Assembly: GCA_977020255.1 (NCBI GenBank)
Contig: CDROCS010000103.1
Span: forward strand, 620,001 to 684,000
Direction of reading: 5' to 3'
DNA length: 64,000 nt
Origin: Obrimoposthia wandeli
Lineage: Eukaryota
Of this stretch, positions 42,790 through 64,000 are shown in pieces; the first letter of the stretch is position 1, and every line of letters starts with the position of its first letter. The translations under genes were made by a program, and so were the position numbers. Below the pieces are notes generated by a model. The model had not been told where the DNA came from and did not search any database. It was given only the letters and a program-made list of their open reading frames with translations.

Positions 42790-43015
42790 ACCACAGTAGT
42801 AGGTAGAAGGATGGAGTCTAGACCACTTGACCCCCCCCCTAAAGGGTGACATACCATAAGGATGTCTCGCCACACCATAAGGGTATATGTTGCCTCACCT
42901 CCGGTGACCCAACATATACCCTTATGGTATGGCAAGACACCCTTTAGGAGGAGGCGGGAGGCGGGGAGGGGTCAAGTGATCTAGACTCCATCCTTCCTTG
43001 ATATACTACTATGGT
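42790..43015. repeat. ~225-bp imperfect palindrome (fold-back)
   Basis: GAAGGATGGAGTCTAGACCACTTGACCCC pairs with GGGGTCAAGTGATCTAGACTCCATCCTTC; inner CCATAAGGGTATATGTTG pairs with CAACATATACCCTTATGG; apex TCACC-TCC-GGTGA near 42902. Confidence 0.95.
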
Positions 43016-43626: not shown

Positions 43627-44313
43627 ATGTAATTTCATAATATCATCTTCAAACTTAAGTGAATAACATTTACAAAGTAAGAAAGTCTATTCTTTATACA
43701 TTCTTTTCGTTTCAACGACTAAGTTACAACGGAATTAATAGAAAATTAGTAAAAATATTAATTTATTTGAATATTTGAATGAGAGTTTGAATAAATGAGA
43801 GGTAGAATGAATGTAAATGAATAAAATTATGCATGTGTTGGGGTTTCTATACGAAACTTGGTATAGAGCCTCTTGAGTGCGGAGGGCCCCAACGTGAGTT
43901 CGATTAGAAGCAGGTCTTAAAGTTGGTCGTGGCCTACTTAGTGTTATGGTTGCCTAATCTCTTGTACTATCTGAAGGTATTTGATTTGATGTCTCTTAGT
44001 CTGAAGGGTGTAAAACAACTTGTTCTAATGTAGGAAATTGTTTATTTGTAATTCACGTAACTAACACAACAATACGTTTATGTACGTATTTCTAAAAAGT
44101 ATGATAAAATTCCTAAAGGACTTCTGTAAGTCTCTACAAGAAGTGGGGATGAACCACGTATCGATTTTACGTTCAGGTGATTAAGCTTTTAGGTTTGTTC
44201 TTCTTACTTAGGTTGGTTAATCTATAACGCAACTCTCTTAAATTTCTTCGCTCCTACTTCTTATCTCTAGATAAAGTTTCTTGGTTCCTTAACTCTATCT
44301 GTGTGTGTTTGAC

Positions 44314-44749: not shown

Positions 44750-44891
44750 ATAGTTTAGTTGGTGTTCTTACCAGTTACGGCAACTAGTGGGACGTCCGAT
44801 GCAGGATCCGTAGATCTTTCGGAATCTTCTTCGAAACAGAGCTTATTACTTGTGGGAGGTTGAGTACACGCTTGAATATACTTTGACTTTG

Positions 44892-45463
44892 AATTATCTC
44901 CACTGACTTGAACCTTTAATACAATCAATTATCTCCACTGACTTGAACCTTTAATACAATCAATTAGCTCCACTGACTTGAACTTTTAATACAATCAATT
45001 ATCTCCACTGACTTGAACCTTTAATACAATCAATTATCTCCACTGACTTGAACTTTTACCTTTAATACAATCAATTATCTCCACTGACTTGAACTTTTAA
45101 TACAATCAATTATCTCCACTGACTTGAACCTTTAATACAATCAATTATCTCCACTGACTTGAACTTTTACCTTTAATACAATCAATTATCTCCACTGACT
45201 TGAACTTTTAATACAATCAATTATCTCCACTGACTTGAACCTTTAATACAATCAATTATCTCCACTGACTTGAACTTTTAATACAATCAATTATCTCCAC
45301 TGACTTGAACCTTTAATACAATCAATTATCTCCACTGACTTGAACTTTTACCTTTAATACAATCAATTATCTCCACTGACTTGAACTTTTAATACAATCA
45401 ATTATCTCCACTGACTTGAACTTTTAATACAATCAATTATCTCCACTGACTTGAACTTTTAAT
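44892..45463. repeat. 35/41-bp satellite, 16 copies, with a ~111-bp higher-order unit
   Basis: AATTATCTCCACTGACTTGAAC(C/T)TTTAATACAATC; 41-bp variants at units 5, 8 and 13. Confidence 0.96.
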
Positions 45464-45534
45464 GGACACTTGGCTTTTTGGACACGAGAACTTAATTGTT
45501 CGATTTGTGGTCAGGGAGTTGAATCCCGTATTTG

Positions 45535-46255: not shown

Positions 46256-46759
46256 TTAATTGTTCCTGTCTCGCAAGAATAGCAAGACCTGCTCCAGTGG
46301 TAGTTCTGGATACGATGGTGGGCCGCCATCGTACAGTATCATCTGCTGGCGCATGGTGAGGTGTTGACTCGGGTGGAAAATAGTTGTATATCGCCCGTGT
46401 ATTCCGCGATTTCTGAGCCATATTTGACGGCCACGCTGCCATGAGCGGGGGTCGCGAGTTGACCGGTATTTCTCGCGGAGGACGAGTTTCGCATCGCGAC
46501 GGCGCGCGATACAGTCGGGGCAATGGCAGTGCTCGCCACCAATACAGCTGGTGAGCGAATGGGTGCCCTTGTGGCGCCCTCGACACTGTAGTGTCCATTC
46601 CGCGAAGGGAGTACGGCAAAAGGGGCAATTGACATGTCCTTCGGGTCGAAGTCGGGCCCAAGTATATAGGCAGGATTCGTGGAATTTGTGACGGCAGCCG
46701 ACAGGGGATGCTGATACCGCCCAAATTTTCTCCATGCATACAGCGCACTTCATCTGCAT
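46256..46759 (-). CDS. RING-H2 protein 3 (167 aa) with extra Cys cluster and C-terminal PPSY motif
   Basis: CAVC...CRHKFHESC...CPFC (C3H2C3); SC...HCHCPDC; PPSY near the C-terminus; intact ORF. Confidence 0.88.
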   Translation of the reverse strand: MQMKCAVCMEKIWAVSASPVGCRHKFHESCLYTWARLRPEGHVNCPFCRTPFAEWTLQCRGRHKGTHSLTSCIGGEHCHCPDCIARRRDAKLVLREKYRSTRDPRSWQRGRQIWLRNRGIHGRYTTIFHPSQHLTMRQQMILYDGGPPSYPELPLEQVLLFLRDRNN

Positions 46760-47092
46760 AAGAAAATAACTCCTTTCAATTTGGGGTTCACCGTTCTCAT
46801 CGTTAATTTAAATTTTATTTCAAAACGAATCCTTAGTTATCTAATCCTATCGAGTTTTGTTTCGATTTTAGGCATGTTTACGCATTCACACTAAGCATAA
46901 AAATTGTCTTTTTAGAAATTCAGTATAATAATTACAATTTCAGTTAAACATCATACATAAAAATGGTAATGGTCAATTTACAGTTCACAAGATTATATAA
47001 TTATGATTACAATTATGGTAGCTAATTTATCGCGGTATGCGATACACAGGGTAGTTCATGATGTCACGTTCAAGTCAGAAAGTTACCTTCGA

Positions 47093-47398
47093 TTATTGTT
47101 GGGGATTGGGCTGGCCTGTGCTTCGCTCCTCCACGCAGAACGAGCACCAGCAATCGCAGATTGTTTTCCAGCAGTGTACGATGGGTACCACTGCTTGGAG
47201 GCTGTCTTGGTTGTACACGTAGTGTACTGAGAAGGTCGCTCTGCACATCGGGCAGGTTGGGAAGTCGAGGGGATTGTTGCTGTTGGCAATGGGGATCCAC
47301 GTCTCGAGGCATTCGACGTGGAAGAGGTGGTCGCAGTTGTTGGGCTTGGTGTAGAAGTCCACAATGCTCTCGTAGCAGATGGAACATTCTCCAGACAT
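47093..47398 (-). CDS. RING-H2 protein 2 (101 aa)
   Basis: CSIC...CDHLFHVEC...CPMC plus HCWKTICDCWCSFC; intact ORF. Confidence 0.9.
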   Translation of the reverse strand: MSGECSICYESIVDFYTKPNNCDHLFHVECLETWIPIANSNNPLDFPTCPMCRATFSVHYVYNQDSLQAVVPIVHCWKTICDCWCSFCVEERSTGQPNPQQ

Positions 47399-47458
47399 TA
47401 CTGTGGGAGGGTTGATGTTGAATTTGGGCTCGATTGAGGACTGGTGGTTGTGTGATGT

Positions 47459-47758
47459 TTACACAAAAGTGGTCTGATTTTGTCGATCTGACAAACAGTA
47501 ATAACACCAACACTCTCCGAAATTCTTCCAACAGAATACCACCTGTACATATACATCCTCTTGGTTGGGTTCTAACATGATGAATCTTGCGAATTGTCTT
47601 CTGCATACGGGGCAACAAGGGTATGTTGGATGTCCAAACTGTCCATAAGTTCTGATCCATGTCGATAAACATTCCTCGTGGTGTAAATGGTTGCAGGTTT
47701 CGGGTCTTGTTCTTCGTTCGGTTAGATCTTCCAAACATATTGGGCATTCTTCGGCCAT
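47459..47758 (-). CDS. RING-H2 protein 1 (99 aa)
   Basis: CPIC...CNHLHHEEC...CPVC plus FCWKNFGECWCYYC; clear paralog of RING 2. Confidence 0.9.
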   Translation of the reverse strand: MAEECPICLEDLTERRTRPETCNHLHHEECLSTWIRTYGQFGHPTYPCCPVCRRQFARFIMLEPNQEDVYVQVVFCWKNFGECWCYYCLSDRQNQTTFV

Positions 47759-47866
47759 TCTAAATACATGATGATGATTAATTTCTACATGAGTTTTATA
47801 TACTTCTACTATTTGTACAATCGCTTCTAGATATTTCTACATATTTCACACACTAATTTATCTACA

Positions 47867-47881: not shown

Positions 47882-50752
47882 TCATATCTTGATGGGAGGC
47901 GGAGGTAAGTCTAATTCCACTTCCTCCATGATGGGTGTGTCACAGCATCGCAATCCTTCGCATTTTCGTCGTATTCCTGGGCATACTTGACTGCCTTTTA
48001 CGCACACGATTGTCAATAAAACCACTGCTGTTGACACTACGGCCATTCCAATTAGGGCATTGACCGCTGTTATTCCGCTGTCTGATGATTTATAATCATA
48101 CTTCATTTTGTTGTTTGTTGGTTCGAATGACATTTCCATGGGTTTTGATCGGTTTCCATGTATTATGTCCGATTTTCTAAAAATTCGGGGATTTGGGTGT
48201 TTTGTTTCTGATGGAACAGGTATTATTATTTTGGATTGGAAATGATGTTTGGGATCTAGTGGGATCGTTCCCCTCACTCTTGTCCTCTTAATAATTGTAC
48301 TTTGGTTTCTGGACTTGGACTCTTTTTCTTTCGCTTCTGTCTTTGTTCTGATCACTGTCGGTTTTTCGGAATGTCGTTTACTTTCGTTTACTTTTGCCTT
48401 CTTTTTGACTAGGATTGGTCTTTTGGGAATGATTTTCCTGGGTTTGATACTTATACCGTATCTACGAAATCGACGGTTCTGGTATCTTAGAGTTATGTAG
48501 AATATTTCACCTGTTATTATCATGATTATGGTCGAGGTCTCTGTAGAATTACTGGCAATTCGATTACACAGACATTCTGTGTTAAAATGTGGTACTAACA
48601 TTTGGCTTTGGATTTCGAATCTGATTCCGCCATCTGGGTTGGGACACATTACTGTCACGCTGTCGGTTTCTAGCAATCTGAAAAATATCCTAACGGAATT
48701 CCATACGGCTTTGCGTCGTCTACCTGTGATCATAATCCTGTCGACAATTTTCCAGATGCGCTCATCTCTAGGCAATATTAATGACTTTGTTCGGATACTT
48801 TGGATAATCCGCTTCCTCTTTGATATTGTTATCCGTAGGTATAACACTCTTTCATGATACAATAATATTAAATTGTAATCGGGTGTATTTTGGTCGATTT
48901 TTATTCTGACCTGTCGGATGACATACAACTTCTGATCGATATTGTCAGTTGCTGACGTCTGTAGATGAATGTCTACTACGTGATCTGTTTTTAGTAGTGG
49001 AATTTCTATGTATACTGCCCGTATTACGTCTTGTCTCCATTTACTGATCATGATCTCATAACTAGCCTTGGTAGTGGTGATTTGTACGATCAGCATGATT
49101 CCTATGATCGTTCGATTCCTAAACTCAGGAACTTCAATGAAACAAGTCAAATTACTCATATAGTACGGTCTTTCCTCAATATGTTCATATATCGTTGGCT
49201 GGTACTCTGGTGCTGGTTCATCTAGAAATGGTGGTCTTGGTATAATTGTGTTGAATTTTTGTAAGTTCATTTGACCTGTTCGTCTTGCGAGATCATGCCT
49301 TTTCTTTTTTGATCTCAACTCTAACTTTGTACAACAAAACAAGATGAGTAATATTAATATTATAAATCCAATGATCAGTGCGAGTATTGGATTAACCAAT
49401 TCTAGAATACCGTAACGTACTGCTGGTATTCCTTTACTCTTGATGGTTAATATTTTAAATTTGTGTGCACTTTGGTTGGACATGTCACTGAGAAGCACTA
49501 TTTTAGTTTGTCCAAATATGTAGTCTTCACATGTGACAACACTAACTCCATAATGTCCATTAAGTGTTATCATTTCGGTCGCTGGGACTATACACATTCG
49601 TCCTGGACATCCTTTTACACACATGATCATCACGGCTCTACTGTGGGATGTCTTGATTATTTCCAGGGTGTTGTCTAGATTTCTCAAGTGTAAATTATAT
49701 TCGGATAGTGTCATCAATTCGGCTTTACTGGTTGGCATGGCTTGCAGTACCAATCCAATTACTACTCCATAAATCAATCCTTGTGCAACGGTGCACAGGG
49801 CCTTGACTGACCTTTTGCAAAGGGTTTTAATTATCAATCGTTTGAGAGATATCTGTTTCTGATTGGTTCGTTTTGTTGTCTGTCGTTGTTTTGACATCTC
49901 CTCGATTCCATCTCTTCCGATAATCAACTGTACCGGTTTACCTTGTATCGTCAACTTTCCGAATCCATTTTTGGCGGACAAGCATGTTTTATGTCCTTCC
50001 CTTGTTTCAATTATCACTCTCTTACTTCCATACTCACGTGTTTTGATGACATCGCCGTTGAATATATACGTTGGTCCTTTTGTATCAGCATCTTTTTGTA
50101 TTTCCTTTACAACTCGTTTTCTCCGCTTGCATCCGGCGAATGTTGTTGATATTCGGTCAAGTGTGTGCTGTCGGTCAGCTTCATAATATATTCGAAATTG
50201 ATTCAGTATTCTGTTTTGTGGGTAAAATATCGCTTCATTTACTATGTTGTCTTCGATCCTTTCGTCTAGATACACAAGCACTTTGTTCGTTGGTCCATTT
50301 GGTCTTTTCATCTTTACAAACTGAAATCTTTTACTGTCGGTTCTCATAGATCGAAGACATTTTCGGATGATCCATACATCAATTAGTCCTAACAACACTA
50401 ATAGCATCATTAGTGCCGGTGTATGGTACTGTATGGTGTAGTTGTGGATTTCGTTGAACCAGGAACTATTTCCGTGGTTGGAGCCTATCTCCTGTGCTCC
50501 CGTTATCGGCATTAGACAACTTAACAAGCCTATTGCTAACAATCTTTGGTATTGAAAGCTGGGCACTGTTGTTGTAGCTTCATTTGTTTCTCGTTGTTGC
50601 TTCCTCTTTTCGGTGTATTTTTCTATTTCTCGAACGAGTAACGGTTTGAATTCCGTATTTGGTCTATTCTGTTTGATGTAGACCATCGCTTCTTCTGGCG
50701 TGTGACCATGGTACTCTACCAACAAGGATACACCTATGGTAGGCGCTAACAT
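47882..50752 (-). CDS. 956-aa terminal reading frame: end of pseudo-DUSP, then three signal-peptide/ectodomain/TM units
   Basis: Open frame with alternating signal-like (LLAIGLLSCLMPITGA, GLIYGVVIGLVLQAMPTSKA, TIIGIMLIVQITTTKA) and TM-like (ALMMLLVLLGLIDVWII, PILALIIGFIILLILILFCC, ALIGMAVVSTAVVLLTIVCV) segments. Confidence 0.78.
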   Translation of the reverse strand: MLAPTIGVSLLVEYHGHTPEEAMVYIKQNRPNTEFKPLLVREIEKYTEKRKQQRETNEATTTVPSFQYQRLLAIGLLSCLMPITGAQEIGSNHGNSSWFNEIHNYTIQYHTPALMMLLVLLGLIDVWIIRKCLRSMRTDSKRFQFVKMKRPNGPTNKVLVYLDERIEDNIVNEAIFYPQNRILNQFRIYYEADRQHTLDRISTTFAGCKRRKRVVKEIQKDADTKGPTYIFNGDVIKTREYGSKRVIIETREGHKTCLSAKNGFGKLTIQGKPVQLIIGRDGIEEMSKQRQTTKRTNQKQISLKRLIIKTLCKRSVKALCTVAQGLIYGVVIGLVLQAMPTSKAELMTLSEYNLHLRNLDNTLEIIKTSHSRAVMIMCVKGCPGRMCIVPATEMITLNGHYGVSVVTCEDYIFGQTKIVLLSDMSNQSAHKFKILTIKSKGIPAVRYGILELVNPILALIIGFIILILLILFCCTKLELRSKKKRHDLARRTGQMNLQKFNTIIPRPPFLDEPAPEYQPTIYEHIEERPYYMSNLTCFIEVPEFRNRTIIGIMLIVQITTTKASYEIMISKWRQDVIRAVYIEIPLLKTDHVVDIHLQTSATDNIDQKLYVIRQVRIKIDQNTPDYNLILLYHERVLYLRITISKRKRIIQSIRTKSLILPRDERIWKIVDRIMITGRRRKAVWNSVRIFFRLLETDSVTVMCPNPDGGIRFEIQSQMLVPHFNTECLCNRIASNSTETSTIIMIITGEIFYITLRYQNRRFRRYGISIKPRKIIPKRPILVKKKAKVNESKRHSEKPTVIRTKTEAKEKESKSRNQSTIIKRTRVRGTIPLDPKHHFQSKIIIPVPSETKHPNPRIFRKSDIIHGNRSKPMEMSFEPTNNKMKYDYKSSDSGITAVNALIGMAVVSTAVVLLTIVCVKGSQVCPGIRRKCEGLRCCDTPIMEEVELDLPPPPIKI

Positions 50753-51060
50753 CGTACCTTTTTCTGATATATCAGAACGCCGTTTCCTTCTGTGACTTCA
50801 GCTTGGATGGTTTGAGTCAATTTCGTCAGATGTTGTTGTGCATCGTTTATTTCTCGATTGGAAGCATGTATGTATCGAGTGGTGTCGTCTTCAGTATTTT
50901 GACACAGACTAATTATCTCGTTTCCGACTTCAACAATGTTGATTACTCGGTTGATACTATGGAACTTCAATCCAGCAGTATCTATATCTCCTGGATGACA
51001 TAAAAATACTTTTGGCATTATCTGTGTAATTTTATCGACTCCGGCTAAAAATAACCCGGT
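50610..51060 (-). other. Degenerate second dual-specificity phosphatase domain (pseudophosphatase)
   Basis: ITQIMPKVFL, INRVINI, GNGVLIY, TIGVSLLVEYHGHTPEEAMVYIKQNRP parallel the first DUSP, but the P-loop reads YQKKGTMLA (no Cys/Arg) across a frameshift in an A5 run at ~50760. Confidence 0.7.
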
Positions 51061-51149
51061 CAATGATAATGCTTGGAGGAAATTCTTTTCCTTTGGATCC
51101 TCAGGAATGTCGTCCATCCGTCTTTGTTCTTGCAACAGAAGTTGGTAAT

Positions 51150-51548
51150 TTGCCAACTGTCCCAAAAATTAAGATTTGGGTTTGCAATACTTCTTCTCTC
51201 CTGTAGGTATTTTAGCGCTTCTAGTACCTGCATTCGTCTAGTCTTTATTAGGTATGCTAATACTAGAGTTGCTGATCGAGAAATTCCTTTCTGGCAATGT
51301 ACTAACACTTTTCCTTGGTTCCGGAGTTCTCTGTGAAGTATTTCGTTTGTTTCTACAAACCATTCAAGAAGATTAGCGTCCATTGAGTCTTTTACTCTTA
51401 ATGTCATAGCTCTGATCGTCTGATATTGCGATTTGTGATTCATTGTAACGTTGATCACATATGTTATCCCTTGTTCCAACAGTTTCTTTTCATCTGTTGC
51501 ATCCTCCACATTTCCGAGGTATAACTTACCTGGAATGATCTCACTCAT
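51150..51548 (-). CDS. Dual-specificity protein phosphatase domain fused downstream of integrase
   Basis: SEIIPGKLYLG, GITYVINVT, VKD (general-acid loop), VLVHCQKGISRSATLVLAYL (HCxxGxSRS at 51299-51273), RRSIANPNLNF. Confidence 0.95.
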
Positions 51549-52059
51549 TGGTGGCGTTAATTCTGACTCTTCAAGTTTTAGTCTTTCTAATCTCTTCTCT
51601 ATCTGTTCGTCGATGTTGGATAGTTTCGCCAGTTTCTTTCCTCTCAGCATTCGTATTGCTGGAGAGATATTCATCTTTGTCTCTGATGTCTGTTCCTTTG
51701 TTGAGTCTTCTTCCGACTCGGTCTCTTCTGCAGATTTAATTCGTCTTTCTTGTATATTCTGTTTCACGAATTCTATATTTTGTCTTTTTCTGCTCTCTTT
51801 AGCGAATTCAACCTCCATGGTTCTTCCGAATCGCTCTATTATGTTATCTTCGGATTCTGTTGATTCTGTATCGTTACTTTCCGGTTCACTGTCTTCACTA
51901 GACTCGCTCGAAGGGTATTCTGGTATGTCTGTCTGAACTGAAATTAATGAAGGGGTTAGAATAATTGGGTTGATTTCCCCTTCGTATTTGTGAATCGGAT
52001 ACGGTATTACACTATCTTTAAGTATCTCAACTTGGAACTGTGCTCCATAGCACATGACA

Positions 52060-52985
52060 ATTGTTTCTAATTTACCCATGATGGACAATCCATCGAAATA
52101 GGTAACATTCAGCTTAGATATCGGTGTCTTCGCATAATTAATTAAGTTTACTCGTATCTCGGTTGATGACGGCCATCGATTTTTTAGTAAAATTATAATT
52201 TCGTCGTTTATCGATGTAATTACACTTGGTGCGGATGATACTATTTCAGCATGATATTTTGGCTGGATTGAGTTGGTCACTTGTTCTCGGATCATATTGA
52301 TTCTTTGTGGCTTTTTATTTTTAGCTTCCCACTTCCGGTATCCGCTGTCAATGCGTAATTCTGCCGTTGCTTTGATGATTTTATTGTTAGTCACTTCCGG
52401 ATGGGTTGGCGAATGGAATCCTTCTATTACGCTCAACCTTACAGATACTTCCGTTTGGTCTGTATCTAACCGGTGAGATTCTGGTATACAACATACAATT
52501 GTCTTTCCATCAAAGTATTTGGTGTCCATCTGACAAATTATCTTTTCAGTGTCAGCGTCAATTAAATGGACTCTCATGATATCTCTTTTCCCATGTGAAT
52601 TACGTAATACCATTATTACATCGTGGTATTCTTGTTTGAGTCTTTTTGGTGTACCATGCAGTATGTGACCACCGGCCGGTTCTTTTTCTTCCTGACTGGC
52701 TAGTCCTGCTTCAGTACTGTCATAGTTCTGCCATGCAACTATGTTTGGTGTCAATGTGATTTCGATTATCACTTTCTCAGTCGTAAACACATTGGAATTT
52801 TGATAAAGTGCTGCGACTAGTGTATTTCCGTCGTAGTATGACACTCTAAGTTCGCACAGAAATTCGTTTGTCAGTGCATCTTTCACAATGACTTCTTTAG
52901 CCACATCTGTCGGTTGTGTTTTTTCGAAAACAACTATTATCTCTTCGTCTTCTTCTAATATCTCTTGTGGTGCGATGTGTCGGAT
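52060..52985 (-). other. Three ~65-aa related beta-rich repeats (possible IPT/TIG-like)
   Basis: Shared pattern I...P....e(I/V)I..L.n....i.V...d....i..l.v.Y(Y/F)DG.t(I/L) at ~52979-52800, 52667-52477 and 52247-52065. Confidence 0.65.
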
Positions 52986-53229
52986 TACTTCCTTTTCCTC
53001 TTGGTACTTCATTCTGAGCATACCAATTCTCGCTGGTTTTTTCTCGCTACCACTCGTCATCGTGTTTATGTAGTTCCGATCACTTATCATTCGTGTAAGT
53101 TTAATGGTATTGGTGTTCGATTTCGATTTCTGTGATCTTAACTCATATCGTGACGCATTATCTTTATTTGGTACTAATTTGCATCGATTTGCATGTACAA
53201 TCATCGGTTCCTTGTTCCGATTCTCTTCG

Positions 53230-54210
53230 TTGATTACTTTCAAATTTGTTGAGGTTGTCTGGATCACTTTGTACGGTCCTTTGTATGGTCTATGAAGTTT
53301 AAACGATAGACCTGGTTCGATGACTGGATAAAATATCATCACTTGATCTCCGACTCTAAATTCATGTGGTTTTGCTTTTTTGTCGTATTGTTCCTTGTAA
53401 CCTTCTTGATTGAATTTCAACTTCAATCCGGCTTTGGTCCAAGCATCTTGTAACCTTTCCTTCATAACGACAATGTATTGTTCAGTTTCTAGGTACTGAG
53501 ATGTTGGCTCGGTCCACTCCAGATCCATTGGCATATTGTTCTGTCTGAGATACATCAGATAGAATGGTGTGTGACCCGTCGCCTCTCGAACTGAATTCCT
53601 GTAAGCATATAAACATGAAGGTAAATATTTATCCCAATCCTCTTGCTTGTCTGAGCAATAGGATTGTACCATCATACATAAAGTTTTATTAAACCTTTCT
53701 ACCAGACCATCTGTCTGTGGGTGATATGGTGAAGTTTGTAACTTCATGATTCCGAATATCTTCGATACTGCTTTTATGACTTCTCCAGTGAAGTTCTTAC
53801 CTTGATCCGTTAACAACTTTCTAGGCACTCCGTATCGAAATATTATCTCTTCCACTAAGATTTGCGCTATTGTTTCAGCTTTCTGGTTCTGCATGGGATA
53901 TGCTTCTACCCATCTCGTCATGTAATCCGTAAATACTATGACATACTTGTTTCCTTTACTTGATTCTCTCAATGGTCCCAATATATCCATCGCTGTGAAT
54001 TCCATTGGTGCCAAGGGAACTGGCATTGGTTTCAACGGAACTTTAGTACGAGTTCCGGTGTCTTTTCTGGTTAAACATACTTTACATTGTTTACACCATT
54101 GTTTTATGTCGTCTTCCATACCATCCCAATGGTACTTCTCTTTGATTCTGGCTATCGTCTTTCGCCCTGACAGATGTCCTCCTAGTGTTCCGTCGTGATA
54201 CTGGATCATC
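53230..54210 (-). CDS. pol: Integrase (HHCC zinc finger, DDE core, GPY/F-type C-terminal module)
   Basis: HDGTLGGH...CKQCKVC, AMDILGPL, TDQGKNF, SPYHPQTDGLVERFN, YKGPYKV; inside the 1309-aa ORF 51060..54989. Confidence 0.97.
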
Positions 54211-54499
54211 ACTGCTGTTTTCAATGACTTCGGAATTACTACTACTATCTTTCCGACGTTATTGACAATATACAAGATTCCTTCTTTTATCAGTATTTTC
54301 TTCGTCATTTCATCGTTTAGATCTCCTTTCACCAACAATTCTTTAATTAGACTCAGTTCTTCATCTTCTTTCTGTTCTTTGATGATCTCTTTGTCTATTT
54401 TACCCGTCTTTAGCAAAATCGTCAGTAGATTTGCTTCTCCTTTTTGATCATTGGTTTCATCTTCTTCTGGAATTATGTTTCCTTTCTCGTCTACATTTG

Positions 54500-55800
54500 T
54501 CAATCTCGATAAACAATCTGCGTTGCCGTTCGACTTTCCGGTTCTATAACGGATTTCTAGATCGAATTCGGCCAATTTTAGAAACCATCTGTTTAATCTA
54601 CTCATCTCATCTCTATGTTTATACAAGAACTGTAGTGGTTTGTGATCTGTATACAGGAATACTTTTTGTCCTAGCAAATAGTGTCTGTACTGTCTACATG
54701 AATACACTATGGCTAGACATTCCTTTTCGATAACAGAGTATCCTCTTTCGGCTCTGTTTAATCCTCTACTCGCATACGCAATGACGTGTTCTCTTCCTTC
54801 GTCATCCTCTTGTCCCAATACTGCTCCTACAGCATAGTTACTTGCATCTGTCATAAGTATGAATTGTCGGTTTATATCTGGAAACGCTAATATCGGTGCT
54901 TTTATCAATCTTTCTTTTAAATGCTCGAACGCTTGTTGGGCTTCTTCTCCCCATATGAACTTCTCATCTTTTCTCGTCAACTTTCTCAATGGTGTTGCTA
55001 TATCTGAAAAATGTTCAACAAATCGTCTATAATAATTCGCAAGACCTAAAAAACTCTGTATCTCCTTAACAGTCTTTGGCGCTAAATGCGCTTTTACTTT
55101 CTCGATCTTTGCTGGATCAGGTCGAATGCCTTCTTTCGATACTATATGTCCTAAAATGTTACTCGCTCTTTAGCCCATTCGCATTTTGTAGGTTTAACTT
55201 TTAATTTAGCGTTTTCCAGTCTTTTAAATACAACTTCAAGATTTTTTAAATGTTCTTCGAACGTTTTCGAAAATATTATTATGTCATCAATATAAACCAT
55301 CGTGTTTGCACGATGCGAGTACAAAATTCATGCAACGCTGAAATGTTGCTGGAGCTCCTGGCAGTCAGTCGAATGGCATCTTTTCGCATTCGTATAATCC
55401 ATCTCCGCAGGAAAAGGCTGTTTTGTGTTTATCCTCTTCCTCTATCTCGATTTGCCAGTATCCACTCTGCAAATCTAATGTTGTAAAATAATCTGAATTA
55501 CCCAATTTATCGAGCATCTCTTCGATTCTAGGTAATGGATACACATCTTTTCTTGTGATCTTGTTCAGTTCTCTGAAATCTATACAGAATCTCATTTTCC
55601 CATCCTTCTTTTTTTACCAACACCACAGGTGCTGAGAATGGCGAAAAACTCGGTCTAATTACTCCTGTTTTAGACATGTCTTCGATCTGACTTTTTACTT
55701 CATCTTGTAATTGTAATGGTACTCGATATGGTCTTCTTCTGACTACTTTGTCTTCTGTCAGTGGTATTGTATGTTTTATGACAGGTGTTTCTCCTATGTC
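54500..55800 (-). pseudogene. pol: Reverse transcriptase and RNase H, frameshifted
   Basis: PYRVP, SPFSAPVVLVKK, RFCIDFRELN, YPLPRI, LDLQSGYWQI, YIDD, LGHIVS, FLGLANYYRRF, TDASNYAVGAVL, EKECLAI, TDHKPL, NADCLSR. Confidence 0.97.
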
Positions 55801-56259: not shown

Positions 56260-56560
56260 ATCAATACTTATCCCTTTAAGTTGTGATAGTACATCCATTC
56301 CTAAAATTGTAGGTTCAGGACATTCTTTCATGATTCTAACTGGTATAGTGATCGTATTACGTCCAATTATAAATGTACATGGTAATATTCCGTCACTTTT
56401 ACAGGGTCTCCATTGACCGATACCAAGAATTCATCTGGTTCTGCCATTGTTCGTTTCTGTTCCTCTGTCAAACAGTCTTCACTTACTATCGAAGCCACAG
56501 CACCTGTATCAATTAAGGCTTTTACTCTTAAATTATTTACTCTAATGATAGCTGCTGGTC
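56260..56560 (-). other. Retroviral-type aspartic protease 2 (adjacent to RT)
   Basis: KALIDTGAVASIV (DTG at 56510-56502) and, after a frameshift, TILGMDVL. Confidence 0.92.
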
Positions 56561-56684
56561 GCTGTGCTCCATTTATGTTTCCCATATGGTATATTGTATT
56601 TATCGAATTATTACACTCTGTCAGTCCACTTCCTATGTTTGGATAGTGAAATCTAATATTTCTCACTTGTCGATCTATTATTCT

Positions 56685-57680
56685 TCGACAAATCGGACAT
56701 GATACCATTTTATTCGCACATCTCCGACATGTTCTTACATGTCCGCATGGTAGAAAAGGCAACTTCTATTTTGTTGACCATGCAAACTGCGCATTCCGGA
56801 TCTTCTAGTACGTATTCTAGTTCATTTATGTACTCTTTTCTCTTTTGTTTCAATTGTACTGTCATCTTTATCTCGCAGTAATTCAAAAAATCGATCCGTA
56901 TCCATTTCGCGTAGTTTTTATTTTTAATTCTACCAATTCTCTGATTCTTTCTGCTTCTTTTGGATATAACCTTCTCACGAATGACACTACCGGTGTGTCT
57001 TGTTGAGCCAAAATCTCTTTCCGTGTGATTTGGTATTCGATTATACATTCGGTTTTTCTGTTCTTTTTTGCTTTATTTTGTTTTTAAAAAGTACAAAATT
57101 CGCAAAATTCATGATGTAAAAATTTTCTTAGGTAGCTCAAGAGTGTATCTGTCGATAATTCATTCTTTTTTACACTTGTGGCAATAAATTAAGTCTTTAC
57201 AATACTTTTTTATAGCAAAAAGTCCCTTTTTTGCCAATTTTTTAAGTCTTGGGTCTTCGAAGGTTATTTCTCGATACTGTTCGTCACATTCGTTCACTTC
57301 TCGCATAACTTCGAATATATCTTCAATTCGACTATTCGTTATTACTCTTCCTGTTATTAGAGCTGATTCTCCTTTTGGAATCCCGTCACTGTAATCGAAA
57401 TCGGGTGCTTTTCCCGTTTGGATTTCTGGTACGTTTGACGTTTTAAGTTTCAAAAGAAATGGACAATTTGGTGCATCTCTTTTATGACGTCTCATTGGGT
57501 TTTCATTCTGTTCCCATTCTCTAAACTTTACTCTACACCATACGCATCGTACTACTATCTCCTGACCATAACTACTTGTCGCGTTTAACATTTCTAGGCC
57601 TGATCTTGCCATTTTACGTGCCATTCCTTTTGAATAGTACTGTTCTAATATATTTCGTCTCTTTCTCTCGAATCTCATAG
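56685..57680 (-). other. IAP-like module: intact BIR, degenerate second BIR, C-terminal RING-HC
   Basis: CVWC-x16-H-x6-C at 57546-57463; LAKKGLF..CHKC..HHEFCEF (frameshifted); CAVC..F/LPCGH..C..CA....CPICR at 56793-56685. Confidence 0.92.
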
Positions 57681-57919
57681 GATCCTTTTCTGACAGATTC
57701 ACGTATGTTATTTTTCTCCTCGTCGTATCTTGTGGTCCGAAATTTACATTTTTGTAGTGAAGTATCGACTTTGCTAGCGCTTCCTGTTTTTTTGTCTGGG
57801 TACGAACTTCCCATACGGAACGTAGTGCATTTTTCCTTTTCGACTATAGGTCCTCTCAACATTTTTATCTCTCTCACTGAACTGTCATTCTTATAACTCT
57901 TGTTGTTTGGTAGTATTAT

Positions 57920-58210
57920 TATTCCTTCAAACATTCGTATTACGTCCATCCCAATCATGACTGGACTACCGCAATCTGTGAATATTCTAGCATTTAACTG
58001 TAATGCTCTTCCATCGATATTCAATGAACATTTCAGTGTTCCTTCCGACACTACATCTGTACCATTCACGTTAACAAATGTCTGTTTTCTAGGACATACT
58101 TCTCTTAATTCTTTTGATGACAAGATTTCTTTACTCAGTACTGATACTGCAGATCCGGTATCAACTTCGGCAAGATATTCTCTTCCGTTCAATGTTACTG
58201 CTACTTGTGG
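57920..58210 (-). other. Retroviral-type aspartic protease 1
   Basis: LAEVDTGSAVSVL (DTG at 58162-58154) and VMIGMDVI. Confidence 0.92.
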
Positions 58211-58559
58211 TGGAGCATTTGGATTCTCATTTGATATTCTAGATTTCAGAATTCTTCTGGAATTATCTTTTGTCTTTTTCCTCTGCTTGTGGAATTTCAC
58301 TGTAGCTTACTTTAGGCCATCTTATCATTAAGATGCCTCTCTTGAACTTTCCTTTTCTTCCTTCAATTCCTTCATTGGATATAAGTTTAACGCCACTTCT
58401 TCCTTGTCTGGTAACGGAATCTTTGGTTTTCCTGGTATCTTTGCATATACTCCTGGACTATCATTATCGTCGTCGTTGTCGTCTCGATAGTTTCTTGGTT
58501 CTCTCATCATGGTTCTCGTTTGGTGTTGTTCCTTCTTGAGGGCTCGCAACTCGTTCTCG

Positions 58560-60414
58560 TGATGATGGTGCATTAGATATTTTGCTAAAAATGGAAAACA
58601 TCCAATTATAAGTTGCCAGGTGATTCCGGTTATCCTGTATAAACTATACGTAGACAACACCTGGGCTATAATTACCTGCACAAATTTGGTATAACATAAA
58701 TACCTATGATACCCGAAAATAATTGTCCTAAAACAAGGAATTTCCCCACATCTTTCTAAGTGTCTGATGTGCTGCTTCCTTGAAATGACTTGGCGATAAT
58801 AACATATCGAAATTCACATATCTCGCTCCTGGCGGTAATGCTCGATGTACCATCTCCGTAAGTACTCTGGCTCTTCTTACTGGAAACATTATTTCGTTCC
58901 ACGCCGCTTTTAAATCTTTTCATTGTACAATCCTGCGTTCTCCATATTTTCCACCGCTTGGAATTTCATTTTACCTTTAAGATTCGTCATTCTTATCATC
59001 GCTGGGGTTTTCGTTGGCTTCCGATCAGGTAACGTTATCCATAGATTATTCGTCATCTGATATTCAGGTGCCATTATATTAGAGCAGCTGATTTCTTGAG
59101 TTGGAGTGTCTTTTGGAAGTAACATTCTCGTGATTGGTTCAACAAAAGATCTTTTAAATTATACGTTACTGCCAATTCACTCGTACATCGATCTGTTTTC
59201 CTCAACTGTACCTCTACTTTATTACACTTGTAAGTATACAATACTTCTCCCATGGTTTTAGCAAATACTCCTTCATCCAAGGGTAATAATGGTGCTACCA
59301 TGTCTGGATTCGTAATAGCTAATGCTAACTTTGTTCTTACGATCTCTTTATTTAACTTCAGCAATCTCTTTCGATCATCATCCGATATAACTGTTCCATT
59401 TGCATCAATCCTTTATGATAATAGAAATCAATTTTTATTATTAAAATGCGTGTGTAACTGCATATCTTTTTTGGTTTTAGCTTGGTTTCTGCCAATGCTA
59501 TTGCTTCTTTAGACAAAACTATTCCTGGATAGTTTGTGGTACTAACAGTCATTCCGCATCGCGCTTTGTTTCTCTTTTTAATAAATATCAATCCTTCTTC
59601 TATTGATGTTGCCATTAACAGTGTAGGTGTCTTTGTCATTGGAATTGGTCTTGTTTCATTTAGCAATCCTTTTCCAACTTTATTATACAGGAATCCTTCT
59701 CCATCTTTATTATACAGGAATCCTTTTTTTTATTAAAACTAATCTCTTTCAAAAATACTAGGAGCATTGCTTCGGATTTATGTGATACACAATTGTGGAT
59801 TCACCTGTAAAACAAGATGCATCTGTCATTTTACATTCTGGATACTTCATCATTAGTTGTGTCTTTTTATCAAAATTGGCGGTCCATGTTTTTAATTCAA
59901 TTTTGTAAGTTACGTCCATTACTAACTCGGTTACTTTGGTTCCACGCACGTTTTTTGTTCCTCCGTCACAAGATCCATCGGCCCATCGTTGTCCGACTCT
60001 CGTGACTGTTTCGTATCGTCTCACTCCAATTTTTACATCAGGTTTGTAATTCTTGTCTACCTCTATTGTTCCCGTTCGAAATGCGTCTTCGCAATCTCTC
60101 GGCAAAACCTTATGTGCCTTGTACGGTGTGGTAGGTGTGATTTCTGACATAAAACTTCTATGGCCACAATAGAATTCGTGATAACTTGAATGGATTGAAC
60201 ATTCTTTCACTTCTACTTGTACTTTATCAACATCCTGATACAGAAAGTAGTTTTCAACACCTTGAACTTCTAGTTTTGACGGTTGTGATTCTGGACAGTC
60301 TTCGCTGTCAAGCAGTGAATACTTTTGTCCCATCTTTGGTATGCTACAGTCATATGCTATCAATCCTGATGCCTGTTGCATTCCCATGAACATTACTAAC
60401 ATCATCATCATCAT
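58560..60414 (-). pseudogene. env: Envelope glycoprotein of the chuvirus/BEL-Pao-associated type, frameshifted
   Basis: Signal-like MMMMMLVMFMGMQQASG, then LIAYDC, YSLLD..DC, FYCG, DGSCDG, GEVLYTYKC.KVEV..R.TDRC..EL.V, F.EPITR, C-terminal TM pair LGQLFSGIIGIYVII and YSLYRITGITWQLII; recognised from memory of chuviral G motifs. Confidence 0.82.
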
Positions 60415-60534
60415 TGTTGTGGACATATTTGGTTGATTGTTTCTCTCTTTCGGACGGTATTGTTTATTTTCCCTTTGACGATTCTCATGACATTGTTCGT
60501 CATCGTCTTCATTCATTTCCACAATGGTTTTAGC

Positions 60535-60900
60535 ATAGTCACTTAATTTTGCCCAACCTCCATTTTCGTCAATTCGTCTCTGTAACACATTCTCGATCAA
60601 ATACATCGCTTCATTTATTCCTTGTTTGACTTCGTGAGGTTGGCTCGTTCGTTCCGTCAATTGGAAACATAGATATGTGATCGCTGTAATTAACTTTTTT
60701 ATTTGTAGTCTGGTTTCCACATAGTCTCGCTAAAACTTCACCAAATCAGATAATCTATCTATGGATGCATGGTATACATGATTCGCGGTCATTCTCTTTA
60801 CTGCAGACATCTGTGATCTGACTGCTTTAGTCAAATTGTCTGTTATATCGGTTGTTTCATCTCTGTACATTTTAAACAACTTCGGCTTCACTTGCCTGAG
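60535..60900 (-). other. Bcl-2-like helical domain
   Basis: VLQRRIDENGGWAKLSDY matches BH2 (WIxxNGGWxxF); upstream LQIKKLITAITYLCFQL sits in the BH1 position but lacks NWGR; one in-frame stop at 60732-60730. Confidence 0.62.
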
Positions 60901-61600
60901 AATTCCCGTAAGTATATCTTTACTACTTGGAGTTTCCGAATTCATATCACCTCTGATATCTTCATTCCTATCTGCACTATACTGCTCTAATGACGCCGCT
61001 AACTGTCCAATACTTAGATGTCTTTCTTCATCAGTTTGTGGTGCAGTTAGAACATTTCGTAATATACTTTCGCCTTTTCTAGGTCTTTAGGTCCTCTTCG
61101 AAAATACTGATACTCAGTTTGATTCTCTCCTGGATCATACGTTTCACCATTATACTGCATCTCGTGACTTGGTCCTTCTTCATGGCCAATCTCTTTTTTG
61201 TCGCATCATTTGCTCTGCTTGTCTATCTTTGTATGCAGCATGCCAAATTGGTGAATCCAAATCTACAATCTCGGAGACTTCGTCTTCTCTACTAGTTGGG
61301 TTACGGTTTCGTTTTGTCTCACTTGGTTAGCTGTATCCGTGACTTCATCTTGTCTGATTGGAATTATATCTGGTTCTGGTGGCACCTCGACCACTGGAGT
61401 TGTCAACTCATTTTCTAAATTCATGTCTTGTAATTCAGTTACGTACGGTTCTGGTGTGATGTCTTGTTCCAAGCTTCAGCTACATCATTATCTCCGCTTT
61501 CACTTGAACTGTCTAAAATTTCTATAGGCGTTTTTATCATTTCTTTTAACGCAGAATTCAATATCTCGGTTAATCCTTCATTATCTACTAACTCTTGACG

Positions 61601-61833
61601 TCCTACAGTGATGACATCAATTTTTTCCTCTAATTCATTTCCTATCGGATATCCAAACTCGACTGGTACGTCCTCATCATCTAATGATCTCCCTTTATAA
61701 TGGAACAACATATTCATTCCATCGAATTTCAAGTTTCTCAGCCAGCTTTTTCCAGAATCGTTTTCATTGTTTGATACACGTTAAGTTTTTCATGTATTAT
61801 CTGTCCGGAAATTAATCGAAGTGAAATTTTCAT
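61601..61833 (-). other. Ubiquitin/SUMO-like domain
   Basis: MKISLRLISGQIIHEKLNVYQTMKTILEK, then (A5-run frameshift) LKFDGMNMLFHYKGRSLDDEDVPVEFG...KIDVITVG follows the beta-grasp pattern. Confidence 0.62.
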
Positions 61834-62699
61834 CGTTCCTTTTGGTTTGATCTCTGTACATAACGACCATAACCTTTCAGTAGTCCTCGGTACTTCTTTG
61901 TAACCCAAGTTATCATGACTATGTTTAACCAATTCTGCTCGCACTTCTTCAATCGGTGCATTGCACTTTAATTGTTTGCAATTTGGCCAAAACTTCTGGA
62001 GCTTCACTCGTTTTCATCTAACGGTTGATTCAACGTTTCCTTAGCTTCACTAATTATCTTTTTTTACATTTTCCATACTCGTTGCATTTCTCGCTGCTTC
62101 ACATGATCAGCCATAGGTTGTGCGTTACACGTTTTCTCTATTGGTGTCTCATGCGCTTCTAATATTCTATTCATTAAATCATTCATCTCTTCTCTCGAAT
62201 GTGAACCTTTCTCTTGCACTCGACAACGTAGATGAATTCGCCATCTTTGTATGTGGTGAATCTTTTAATTATTCCCAACATTCGTTCAAATTTACTATCA
62301 CTATCTTTGAAATCTGTTATTTCGCGTCGAAGCTCGGTCTCGCGATTCCTATCACTAATCATCGCTTACATAACTAAAATTTCCTTTCGGTTTCGGCGAA
62401 TCTCTCTCATTATTTGTCTTGTCGACATTATTATTATTATATCTACCAGAATTATTATATCTCTCAGCTCCTTGCTGTCCTACGTATTATTGTATCTCTC
62501 AGCTCCTTGTAATGTAATGCTGCATAGTTATTATCTACCTGGTGACTGTTGTCTATCTGTATACTGATTATTCAGTCTCCATATGGCTGTGGAGTATATC
62601 CACCACCTCTATTCCATGGCGAGGTGAATTATATCCTCTATAATTATTTCCAAATTATTATTACCGAAATTATTATTTCCAAATCTGTTAGCTCGAACT

Positions 62700-63985
62700 C
62701 TTTACTTCTCGTACCATCTCTCGAATAAGTGACCCATTTGCTTACACGTGTAACACATTATTCTCCCTCGAATATCTATCTTATTTTGTTTTCATCTTCG
62801 AACTGTACTCGACGACTATTCTGTCTATTATCGTAGCGTCCTCTAAAAATCACATTTCTTCCGGAATTCGATTCAAAACCGCCCTCGATTATTGAATCTT
62901 CCGTCACTATTTCCTGCCATTTATTCCAAATCGAGTCACTTCGCTCTCTCTCTGTTGGCGTTATAATTCCTATCGTCTCCTCTCCAAGGTTGGCGATTTC
63001 CTGAATTATCTCTATTAAATCTATTCCTGGAATCATCTCTATTTCTATTCCACAGTCATTATTATTTCTACACTCTTGAATCATCTCGATTCCTGTTCCC
63101 AGACTCACTATTATTTCTCCTCGAATCATCTCCCGTTCCTACTTCGGGAAATTATCTCTATTTCCGTTGCACAGTTCCATCTACTTTTTCAAACTTATTT
63201 TGTCCATAATTTCGATTCTGAAAATTATCGGTTCTGTTTTATTCACGAAGACCTTTGTCTTATCGTCGTCACCTGCAGTCATTGCGTAAATTGCCAATGC
63301 TGCGTTATTTTTTGCTATTTCTCAATCTCTCTCTCTCGCCTTTCGCACGGCGTTATCAAAATCATTTGTATCCGATACTGCTAATAACACTTTAATATCC
63401 TTTTTCAATCCTCACTCTAAATATATCTAACAAGACCTCTGCCATTTCATTTTGGTTCCGGTCATTTTCCGCTGCTTGTGCTTCTGGAGCTACAGGATTA
63501 CCGTCCTGATTTCTCATTATTCTTCTTGGGTACGCTCTTGCGGCCAAGGTTCTCAAAAAACATACGCGCTATTCATTCACGCCTTCGTCATGTTTCTGTT
63601 TCCGTTCTCTCATGAGTCGCTTATTTACTTTGGCTAAATCTCCTAATACCAATTTTCAATAAAAGCATTTTTCCAACGTTGGCCAGTCTAAACGTTCTGC
63701 TTCTGTCAAATGTTTATACACTTCAAGTGCTAATCGGTTAAATATTGCCTGTACTTTGACACATTTTTCTTTATCGTTCCATCCTTGAACATCTGCACAA
63801 CTCGGAGTATTCTGCGAGGAAGTCACAAATACTTTCCTCATCTCCTTTAAACTTTGTAATCTGCAATGATCCTGAAAATTGGAGTCTCAACGTCGCATTT
63901 AAAGAAGCATTGCCAACTGCTCGGCATTCATGTCACCTACATTATTTCACTGCATTAATATCTGCTTGAGCTCTGGTTGAGCCAT
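62700..63985 (-). pseudogene. gag: Gag: capsid domain, N/R/D-rich linker, CCHC zinc knuckle; heavily frameshifted
   Basis: ITKFKGDEESICDFL, GWNDKEKC, RKQKHDEGVNE, DFDNAVRKARE; CYTCKQMGH at ~62755-62729; candidate ATG at 63985. Confidence 0.85.
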
Positions 63986-64000
63986 ATCTTCCAACTATAT

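Follow-up and report, generated by a model that had tools for sequence, protein, structure and literature searches.

The closest described counterparts of the element reported here are the Burro elements of planarians, which reach 25-30 kb in length with their LTRs (PMC6431247). Burro elements carry an ORF of 4,873-5,140 residues in which a ubiquitin-like motif is followed by a BCL2-like motif, and which also contains a BIR domain. Their env is in frame between gag and pol, and it lies between the BCL2-like motif and the protease (PMC6431247, where Burro / GYPSM1 is credited to Jurka 2007 and to Grohme et al. 2018). The order of the BCL2-like domain and env has thus already been published, and because both the domain and its position are known, annotating them once more adds little in itself. 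The published account of Burro is silent on a signal peptide acting as an anchor and on the BH1 motif (PMC6431247, section 7). The BIR-RING module of Burro1 reportedly protects planarian stem cells from apoptosis, according to a second-hand statement in the accessible part of PMC13465017, and the accessible parts of PMC8532177 and PMC13238120 hold nothing further on the Bcl-2-like domain.

The window analyzed here is a stretch of 64,000 nucleotides from Obrimoposthia wandeli (contig CDROCS010000103.1). Between about 64.0 and 43.8 kb, its minus strand carries a giant Gypsy LTR element in a decayed state, which is Burro-like as judged by its domain order against the published description. The element is at least 20 kb long (about 43.8-64.0 kb) and its 5' end lies outside the window. 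A piece of 320-380 bases at 43833 recurs upstream of gag in two of three copies. The domain order along the element, assembled from the window and its sister copies, runs from Gag with a zinc knuckle through a ubiquitin-like and a Bcl-2-like domain to env, a first protease, BIR-RING, a second protease, pol and a phosphatase (Table 1). Gag, the Bcl-2-like domain and env share a single reading frame in sister copies, and the part from env through protease, BIR, RING and second protease is one open frame in sister L109. Burro / GYPSM1 and the window element share the plan of a single polyprotein, some 5,000 residues long, that contains Gag with CCHC, ubiquitin-like, BCL2-like, env, protease, BIR and RT-RH-IN parts; both have an env related to mononegavirus fusion proteins, and both occur in thousands of copies. 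They differ in that the window element has one CCHC knuckle in the stretches read, whereas published Burro elements have 2-3. In addition, two proteases flank the BIR-RING of the window element and a dual-specificity phosphatase follows its integrase, neither of which is mentioned for Burro (PMC6431247, section 7). MATH/TRAF, ankyrin, dUTPase-like and other accessory motifs, which are variable in published Burro and were partly found there by HHpred, gave no Pfam match in the pieces scanned.

Table 1. Features of the Burro-like element around the Bcl-2-like domain, in positions of the window.
Feature	Position	Strand	Basis
Decayed Gag with CCHC zinc knuckle	62715..63990, limits approximate	-	Six-frame reading; zf-CCHC E 6e-6 in sister L111
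Frameshifted ubiquitin-like domain, located upstream of Bcl-2-like	61615..61835, limits approximate	-	Pfam ubiquitin E 0.016 in sister L004, 0.031 in P0003; weak
Bcl-2-like domain, predicted helices 1-8, broken	60520..60927	-	Searches by Pfam, profile and fold with natural sisters and with relatives; dN/dS 0.08-0.14
Out-of-frame stretch between two compensating frameshifts, contains the stop at 60729	60700..60745	-	Frame comparison with sister copies
BH2-like motif RRIDENGGWAKLSDY	60535..60579	-	Sequence; aligns with BH2 of Bax and Bcl-xL; NGGW in 33/37 readable copies
Charged linker, Bcl-2-like domain to signal peptide	60427..60519	-	Sequence; low model confidence
Predicted internal env signal peptide, candidate retained anchor	60364..60426, hydrophobic core 60414-60379	-	Hydrophobicity and small residues at -3/-1
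Env-like fusion glycoprotein (Monjiviricetes_fusion), broken by stops and frameshifts	58400..60363, lower end approximate	-	Pfam E 2.3e-25 and 5.8e-15, two pieces
First aspartic protease domain, directly after env	57935..58204	-	Pfam gag-asp_proteas E 8e-7
BIR with RING finger, an IAP-like module set between two proteases, and the second aspartic protease	56370..57627	-	Pfam BIR E 1.6e-13, zf-C3HC4_3 E 2.6e-8, protease E 1.1e-4
RT fragment, RNase H, integrase and fused dual-specificity phosphatase	51063..55613	-	Pfam RT_RNaseH, rve, DSPc E 3.5e-32; RT motifs by eye in ORF 55365-55613

Several features outside the Bcl-2-like region also merit description. Both aspartic proteases that flank the BIR-RING (56370-58204 on the minus strand; 1-3000 of L109) carry DTG and could release the IAP-like module. 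The pol part of the window contains, by Pfam, RNase H, integrase and dual-specificity phosphatase, followed by three RING ORFs. The phosphatase (51063-51600, minus strand) has an HCxxGxxRS motif and is fused after the integrase and a long spacer. A frame of 971 residues (47885-50797, minus strand) contains four or more segments of strong hydrophobicity (KD19 2.1-3.5) and finds no good match in Pfam; its start resembles, by eye, the end of a second phosphatase-type domain. The three RING ORFs are short, consecutive and of the RING-H2 type (46259-47836, minus strand; zf-RING_2 E 5e-9 to 1e-7), and lie close to the element's 3' end. A tandem array (44822-45531) with a period of 35-41 bases occupies part of what is presumed to be the 3' LTR region. 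Just past the 3' end is a short palindromic repeat (42799-43000) with arms of 42 bases and many genomic copies, possibly a MITE. A GC-rich island at 28001-30000 has 44-47% GC against about 28% in its surroundings. Programmed readthrough before the zinc knuckle was considered and rejected: the stop is common to L111 and L112 but absent from 19/19 readable of 20 other copies. The Gag-CCHC frame is open in most copies.

The window copy itself is broken and cannot encode a Bcl-2-like/env protein as it stands. The initial annotation had proposed a Bcl-2-like domain at 60535..60900, to be modeled after repair of its stop. The sequence confirms the BH2-like motif RRIDENGGWAKLSDY and its placement at 60579-60535 of the minus strand; the domain itself starts at about 60927, with helix 1, and ends at about 60520. 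The premise of stop repair did not hold. Comparison with a sister copy shows that the window carries a pair of compensating frameshifts, one near 60745 and the other near 60700, which leave about 15 codons before helix 5 out of frame, and the stop at 60729 belongs to this stretch instead of being a nonsense codon in an intact frame. Because it sits in out-of-frame codons, reading through it gives a wrong helix 4 and a wrong start of BH1. The domain is therefore judged here on natural unbroken sister copies.

Copies of the domain are abundant. In the genome of 1.35 Gb there are 12,106 first-look candidates for the domain, and all 150 that were scored match. Besides the self match, these comprise 149 sisters at 91-94% identity, none of which has a stop inside the match, with open frames of up to 4,985 residues. 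Since this set was picked by likeness to the Bcl-2-like domain itself, the counts given here come from copies chosen by env alone, namely 40 of the 68 scored in a search with the env family. The frame is unbroken from helix 1 to BH2 in 29 of these 40. NGGW, whose conservation among copies the initial annotation had made a test of the domain, is kept in 33 of the 37 that are readable there. The ratio dN/dS is 0.08 for the diverged copy L036 against 29 copies and 0.14 over 406 pairs within the family, and by these sequence ratios the Bcl-2-like domain is under purifying selection. Searches of the same genome with L036 and with the distant relative P0004 returned only this element family among the loci read.

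A search of 1.84 billion representatives returned two distant relatives, P0003 (26% identity) and P0004 (31%), and a profile search added P0005. All three come from metagenomes and represent further lineages of this type of element. Word-based searches for homologs gave none among 309 candidates and solely the query among 1,078, and with a profile 2 of 1,665. P0003 has Gag, CCHC, ubiquitin-like domain, Bcl-2-like domain, signal and env within 1,130 residues. The layout of domain, linker, signal and env is common to P0003 and P0004 at 26-31% identity.

The initial annotation had suggested a Bcl-2 fold from the BH2-like motif and amphipathic helices, and profile and fold searches very strongly favor homology to the Bcl-2 family. 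Single sequences score weakly, which speaks against it: the Pfam Bcl-2 model gives E 0.15 for the window and 0.057-0.079 for sister L006. Diverged copies and relatives score better (E 7.7e-5 for P0004, 6.8e-4 for L036 with profile positions 6-100, and 0.055 for P0003), yet none of six element sequences or pieces, at 12.8-23.6 bits, passes the curated PF00452 cut-off of 31.4 bits, and the domain is therefore filed as Bcl-2-like and not as a canonical member. Single domains compared with PDB sequences by phmmer at E<=10 found no Bcl-2 protein among 3 and 7 hits. When profiles made of element sequences only were compared with PDB sequences, the Bcl-2 family filled all of the best 60 matches shown (best E 0.052), and with a second such profile 58 of the best 60 (best single-stretch match E 0.017). 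A genome-wide Bcl-2 profile search gave 16 matches, which are 15 host loci (L021-L035) and one element copy, L036. Aligned by hhalign with eight host Bcl-2 pieces, the element reaches a probability of 95.3% and E 2e-8, against 0.3% for the reversed control. Its score against the host Bcl-2 profile is reached by 2 of 1000 shuffles for the window, 7 of 1000 for L006, and 0 of 1000 each for L036, P0003 and P0004. The host loci are themselves varied: 10 of 15 are above the Pfam cut-off, several look single-exon, and some depart from NWGR although most keep its W.

Structure prediction points the same way. A single-sequence AlphaFold model (pLDDT 40.6) was discarded, since a fold search with it gave nothing meaningful (best Z 6.6, to ion channels). 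A model from nine element sequences has low confidence (mean pLDDT 50.1, pTM 0.37), and it does retrieve Bcl-2 structures. In a VIA fold search with it, ranks 1-28 among the best 50 matches are Bcl-2 family proteins (Z 9.1-5.7), and the best unrelated match in these 50 has Z 5.4. The top match is BAK1, which superposes on this pLDDT 50 model with an rmsd of 3.5 over 124 residues at Z 9.1, short of the value of about 13 up to which the tool itself advises caution with helical bundles. Foldseek showed 42 matches, 41 of them Bcl-2 family by title, with probabilities of 0.89-1.00 and E values of 0.02-0.1, none reaching E 0.001; the first, whose title is incomplete, is presumably Bcl-w. The ESM Atlas returned only fungal DUF6532-type clusters (0.91-0.93, low recognition) and no Bcl-2 cluster. 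The weak single-sequence scores, the uninformative single-sequence model and the ESM Atlas result would fit a helical domain unrelated to Bcl-2 whose GGW is a chance match. We consider this highly improbable, since several independent lineages, the controls with shuffled and with reversed sequences, and both fold searches agree on Bcl-2, and published work made the same call for Burro (PMC6431247).

The element domain resembles BAK1, Bcl-xL, Hydra Bcl-2-4, KSHV KsBcl-2 and ASFV A179L in a predicted helical fold of about 120 residues, the GGW of BH2, a hydrophobic helix 5, a basic residue at the R position of BH1 and a hydrophobic segment at the predicted C-terminus. Unlike them, it lacks the W and G of BH1 and the Gly-Asp of BH3, stays below the Pfam cut-off and is part of a polyprotein. 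GGW is kept in P0003 and P0004, both of the distant relatives that reach BH2. At the positions of NWGR, neither W nor G occurs in 38/38 readable of 40 copies or in P0003-P0005, and a basic residue takes the R position in 36 of these 38 and in all three relatives (SRNK in P0003, DKSR in P0004, DKNR in P0005). The BH3 motif has a Gly-Asp in helix 2. By eye, no row of the element alignment has Gly-Asp in the second helix. The initial annotation had called BH1 divergent: part of the region it took for BH1 was misread from out-of-frame codons, and the true BH1 is indeed divergent, having lost W and G in every lineage seen.

The accessible part of PMC7719400 calls the G and R of NWGR key residues for BH3 recognition. 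According to the accessible text of PMC7823800, poxviral M11L, F1L, A52, B14 and K7 have, like the element domain, a Bcl-2 fold whose BH motifs are eroded; myxoma M11L lacks obvious BH motifs and still binds BH3 motifs, whereas A52 and B14 keep the fold and have no groove. Eroded motifs are compatible with both outcomes, so the loss of NWGR bars canonical membership and leaves function undecided. The fold may have been repurposed without BH3 binding, as a scaffold that blocks innate signaling in the manner of A52 and B14 or as a membrane-proximal, matrix-like tie between Gag and membranes that bear env. The loss of W and G in every lineage and the precedent of the grooveless poxviral proteins speak for this, as does the first Met of Gag, which does not precede Gly in L111 or P0003, so that a myristoylation signal is not evident. 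We nevertheless regard it as quite unlikely, because the basic residue and GGW are kept, the element also has an IAP module, and the closest structures are apoptosis regulators. These are cellular, herpesviral and ASFV proteins at Z 8-9 on a rough model, and vaccinia A52 comes only at rank 41. Unlike the poxviral proteins, the element domain retains detectable sequence likeness to cellular Bcl-2, and its model matches M11L, F1L and A52 at only Z 5.7, 6.0 and 4.9. The link to innate signaling that had been raised from the divergent BH1 finds no support in a model as rough as this one. An anti-apoptotic role of the domain is, by a little, the likelier function.

The domain is followed by a charged linker and a hydrophobic segment. 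The stretch at 60414-60364 had been taken for the signal of the glycoprotein, and its predicted features bear this out: the core and the -3/-1 pattern are present in three lineages, and Monjiviricetes_fusion starts directly afterwards. Residues -3 to -1 before the predicted cut are ASG, TLS and AEG in the three lineages, and 39 of 40 copies have a small residue at -1. On these sequence features the segment is in all likelihood the env signal peptide. Part of the signal core (60414-60400) is an ATG microsatellite of variable length: 39 of 40 copies have 4-7 Met/Ile codons, and one (L056) has 28. In two sisters, a single segment at the C-terminus of env exceeds a Kyte-Doolittle mean of 1.6 (2.32), and there is a weaker one (1.26). 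A hydrophobic segment at the end of env fits a chain that returns to the cytosol before the protease.

The signal could be an ordinary N-terminal one if env came chiefly from a message of its own, either spliced or started internally, in which case the fusion to the Bcl-2-like domain would be of little consequence. In the window family an ATG (60426, with an A at -3) stands ahead of the core, P0004 has a Met at the same place, and other gypsy envs are separate ORFs (PMC6431247). P0003, however, has no Met before the core, so that its signal is internal. The frame from BH2 into env, moreover, is open in the window, in 34 of the 40 env-chosen copies and in both distant relatives, and a separate message is accordingly improbable as the main source of env.

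With an internal signal peptide, the domain would lie in the cytosol and would carry the hydrophobic segment at its C-terminus after cleavage. The initial annotation went further and proposed that the segment then stays as a membrane anchor, the usual topology of Bcl-2 proteins. That it doubles as an anchor is something we infer; the sequence alone does not show it. Since a signal at this place is required for any internal env, adjacency to the Bcl-2-like domain proves nothing by itself. The hydrophobic core is about 12 residues long and is interrupted by helix-breaking or polar residues (G in the window, P and N in P0003, Q in P0004). Its best 19-residue Kyte-Doolittle mean is 1.06 in the window family and 1.34-1.80 in the relatives, against 2.32 for the env anchor, and in the window's family no basic residue follows it. 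The linker is long, charged and predicted with low confidence, and the polyprotein has two protease domains. These properties would suit a segment that serves env only and is clipped by signal peptide peptidase or by the element's protease, leaving the Bcl-2-like domain soluble or bound to Gag. We think this rather unlikely in view of the spacing and of a viral precedent. The predicted cut lies 63, 59 and 58 residues past the BH2 tryptophan in three lineages at 20-31% identity. The precedent is the rubella capsid, in which the retained E2 signal peptide makes up the hydrophobic C-terminal end of the preceding polyprotein product and associates it with membranes, and this product blocks Bax (accessible part of PMC3040668). 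The capsid differs from the element in having no Bcl-2 fold, and its signal is 23 residues long. In the same accessible text, the retained E2 signal is required for mitochondrial targeting and dispensable for protection. Retention of the element's signal as a C-terminal anchor is, on balance, an even call. A co-translational signal leads to the ER and not to mitochondria. In Bax, 34 residues separate the tryptophan from the C-terminus in the alignment; the tail of the element domain, a signal peptide inserted co-translationally, would lie about 25 residues more distant from BH2.

If the signal is kept, a sequence of events can be outlined. The hydrophobic segment would start translocation of env into the ER, and signal peptidase would cut after it. 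The env anchor would then bring the chain back to the cytosol, where the protease, the IAP module and pol would be made. The N-terminal product would end in the Bcl-2 domain, the charged linker and the hydrophobic tail, on the cytosolic face of the membrane. Thus tethered, the domain might bind pro-death Bcl-2 relatives of the host through a non-standard groove, and this block would act upstream of the element's own BIR-RING caspase inhibitor. The overall reading, in which the Bcl-2-fold domain of the polyprotein precedes the env signal, probably keeps it as a tether and probably keeps the host cell alive, has about equal chances of being right or wrong. A wider scenario is speculative and, taken as a whole, doubtful: Burro-type elements may have captured a tail-less Bcl-2 domain and used the env signal as a replacement anchor, at a distance held fixed throughout the divergence of the lineages, so that the processed product on the membrane would block Bax/Bak-type proteins through a groove without NWGR and, with the BIR-RING, form a two-level block of apoptosis in host stem cells.

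Reading the env signal as an anchor was not found in print in the sources as far as they were accessible, and Grohme et al. 2018, Lee et al. 2026 or the supplements may cover it. The protection of stem cells by the Burro1 BIR-RING is said to come from Lee et al. 2026 (Dev Cell). What is added here to the known domain order is support for the fold, purifying selection, the loss of NWGR in three lineages and the conserved distance to the env signal. If the reading is true, the host-transposon story of the Burro1 IAP would gain a second module against cell death, one that acts upstream and is anchored by a signal borrowed from env.
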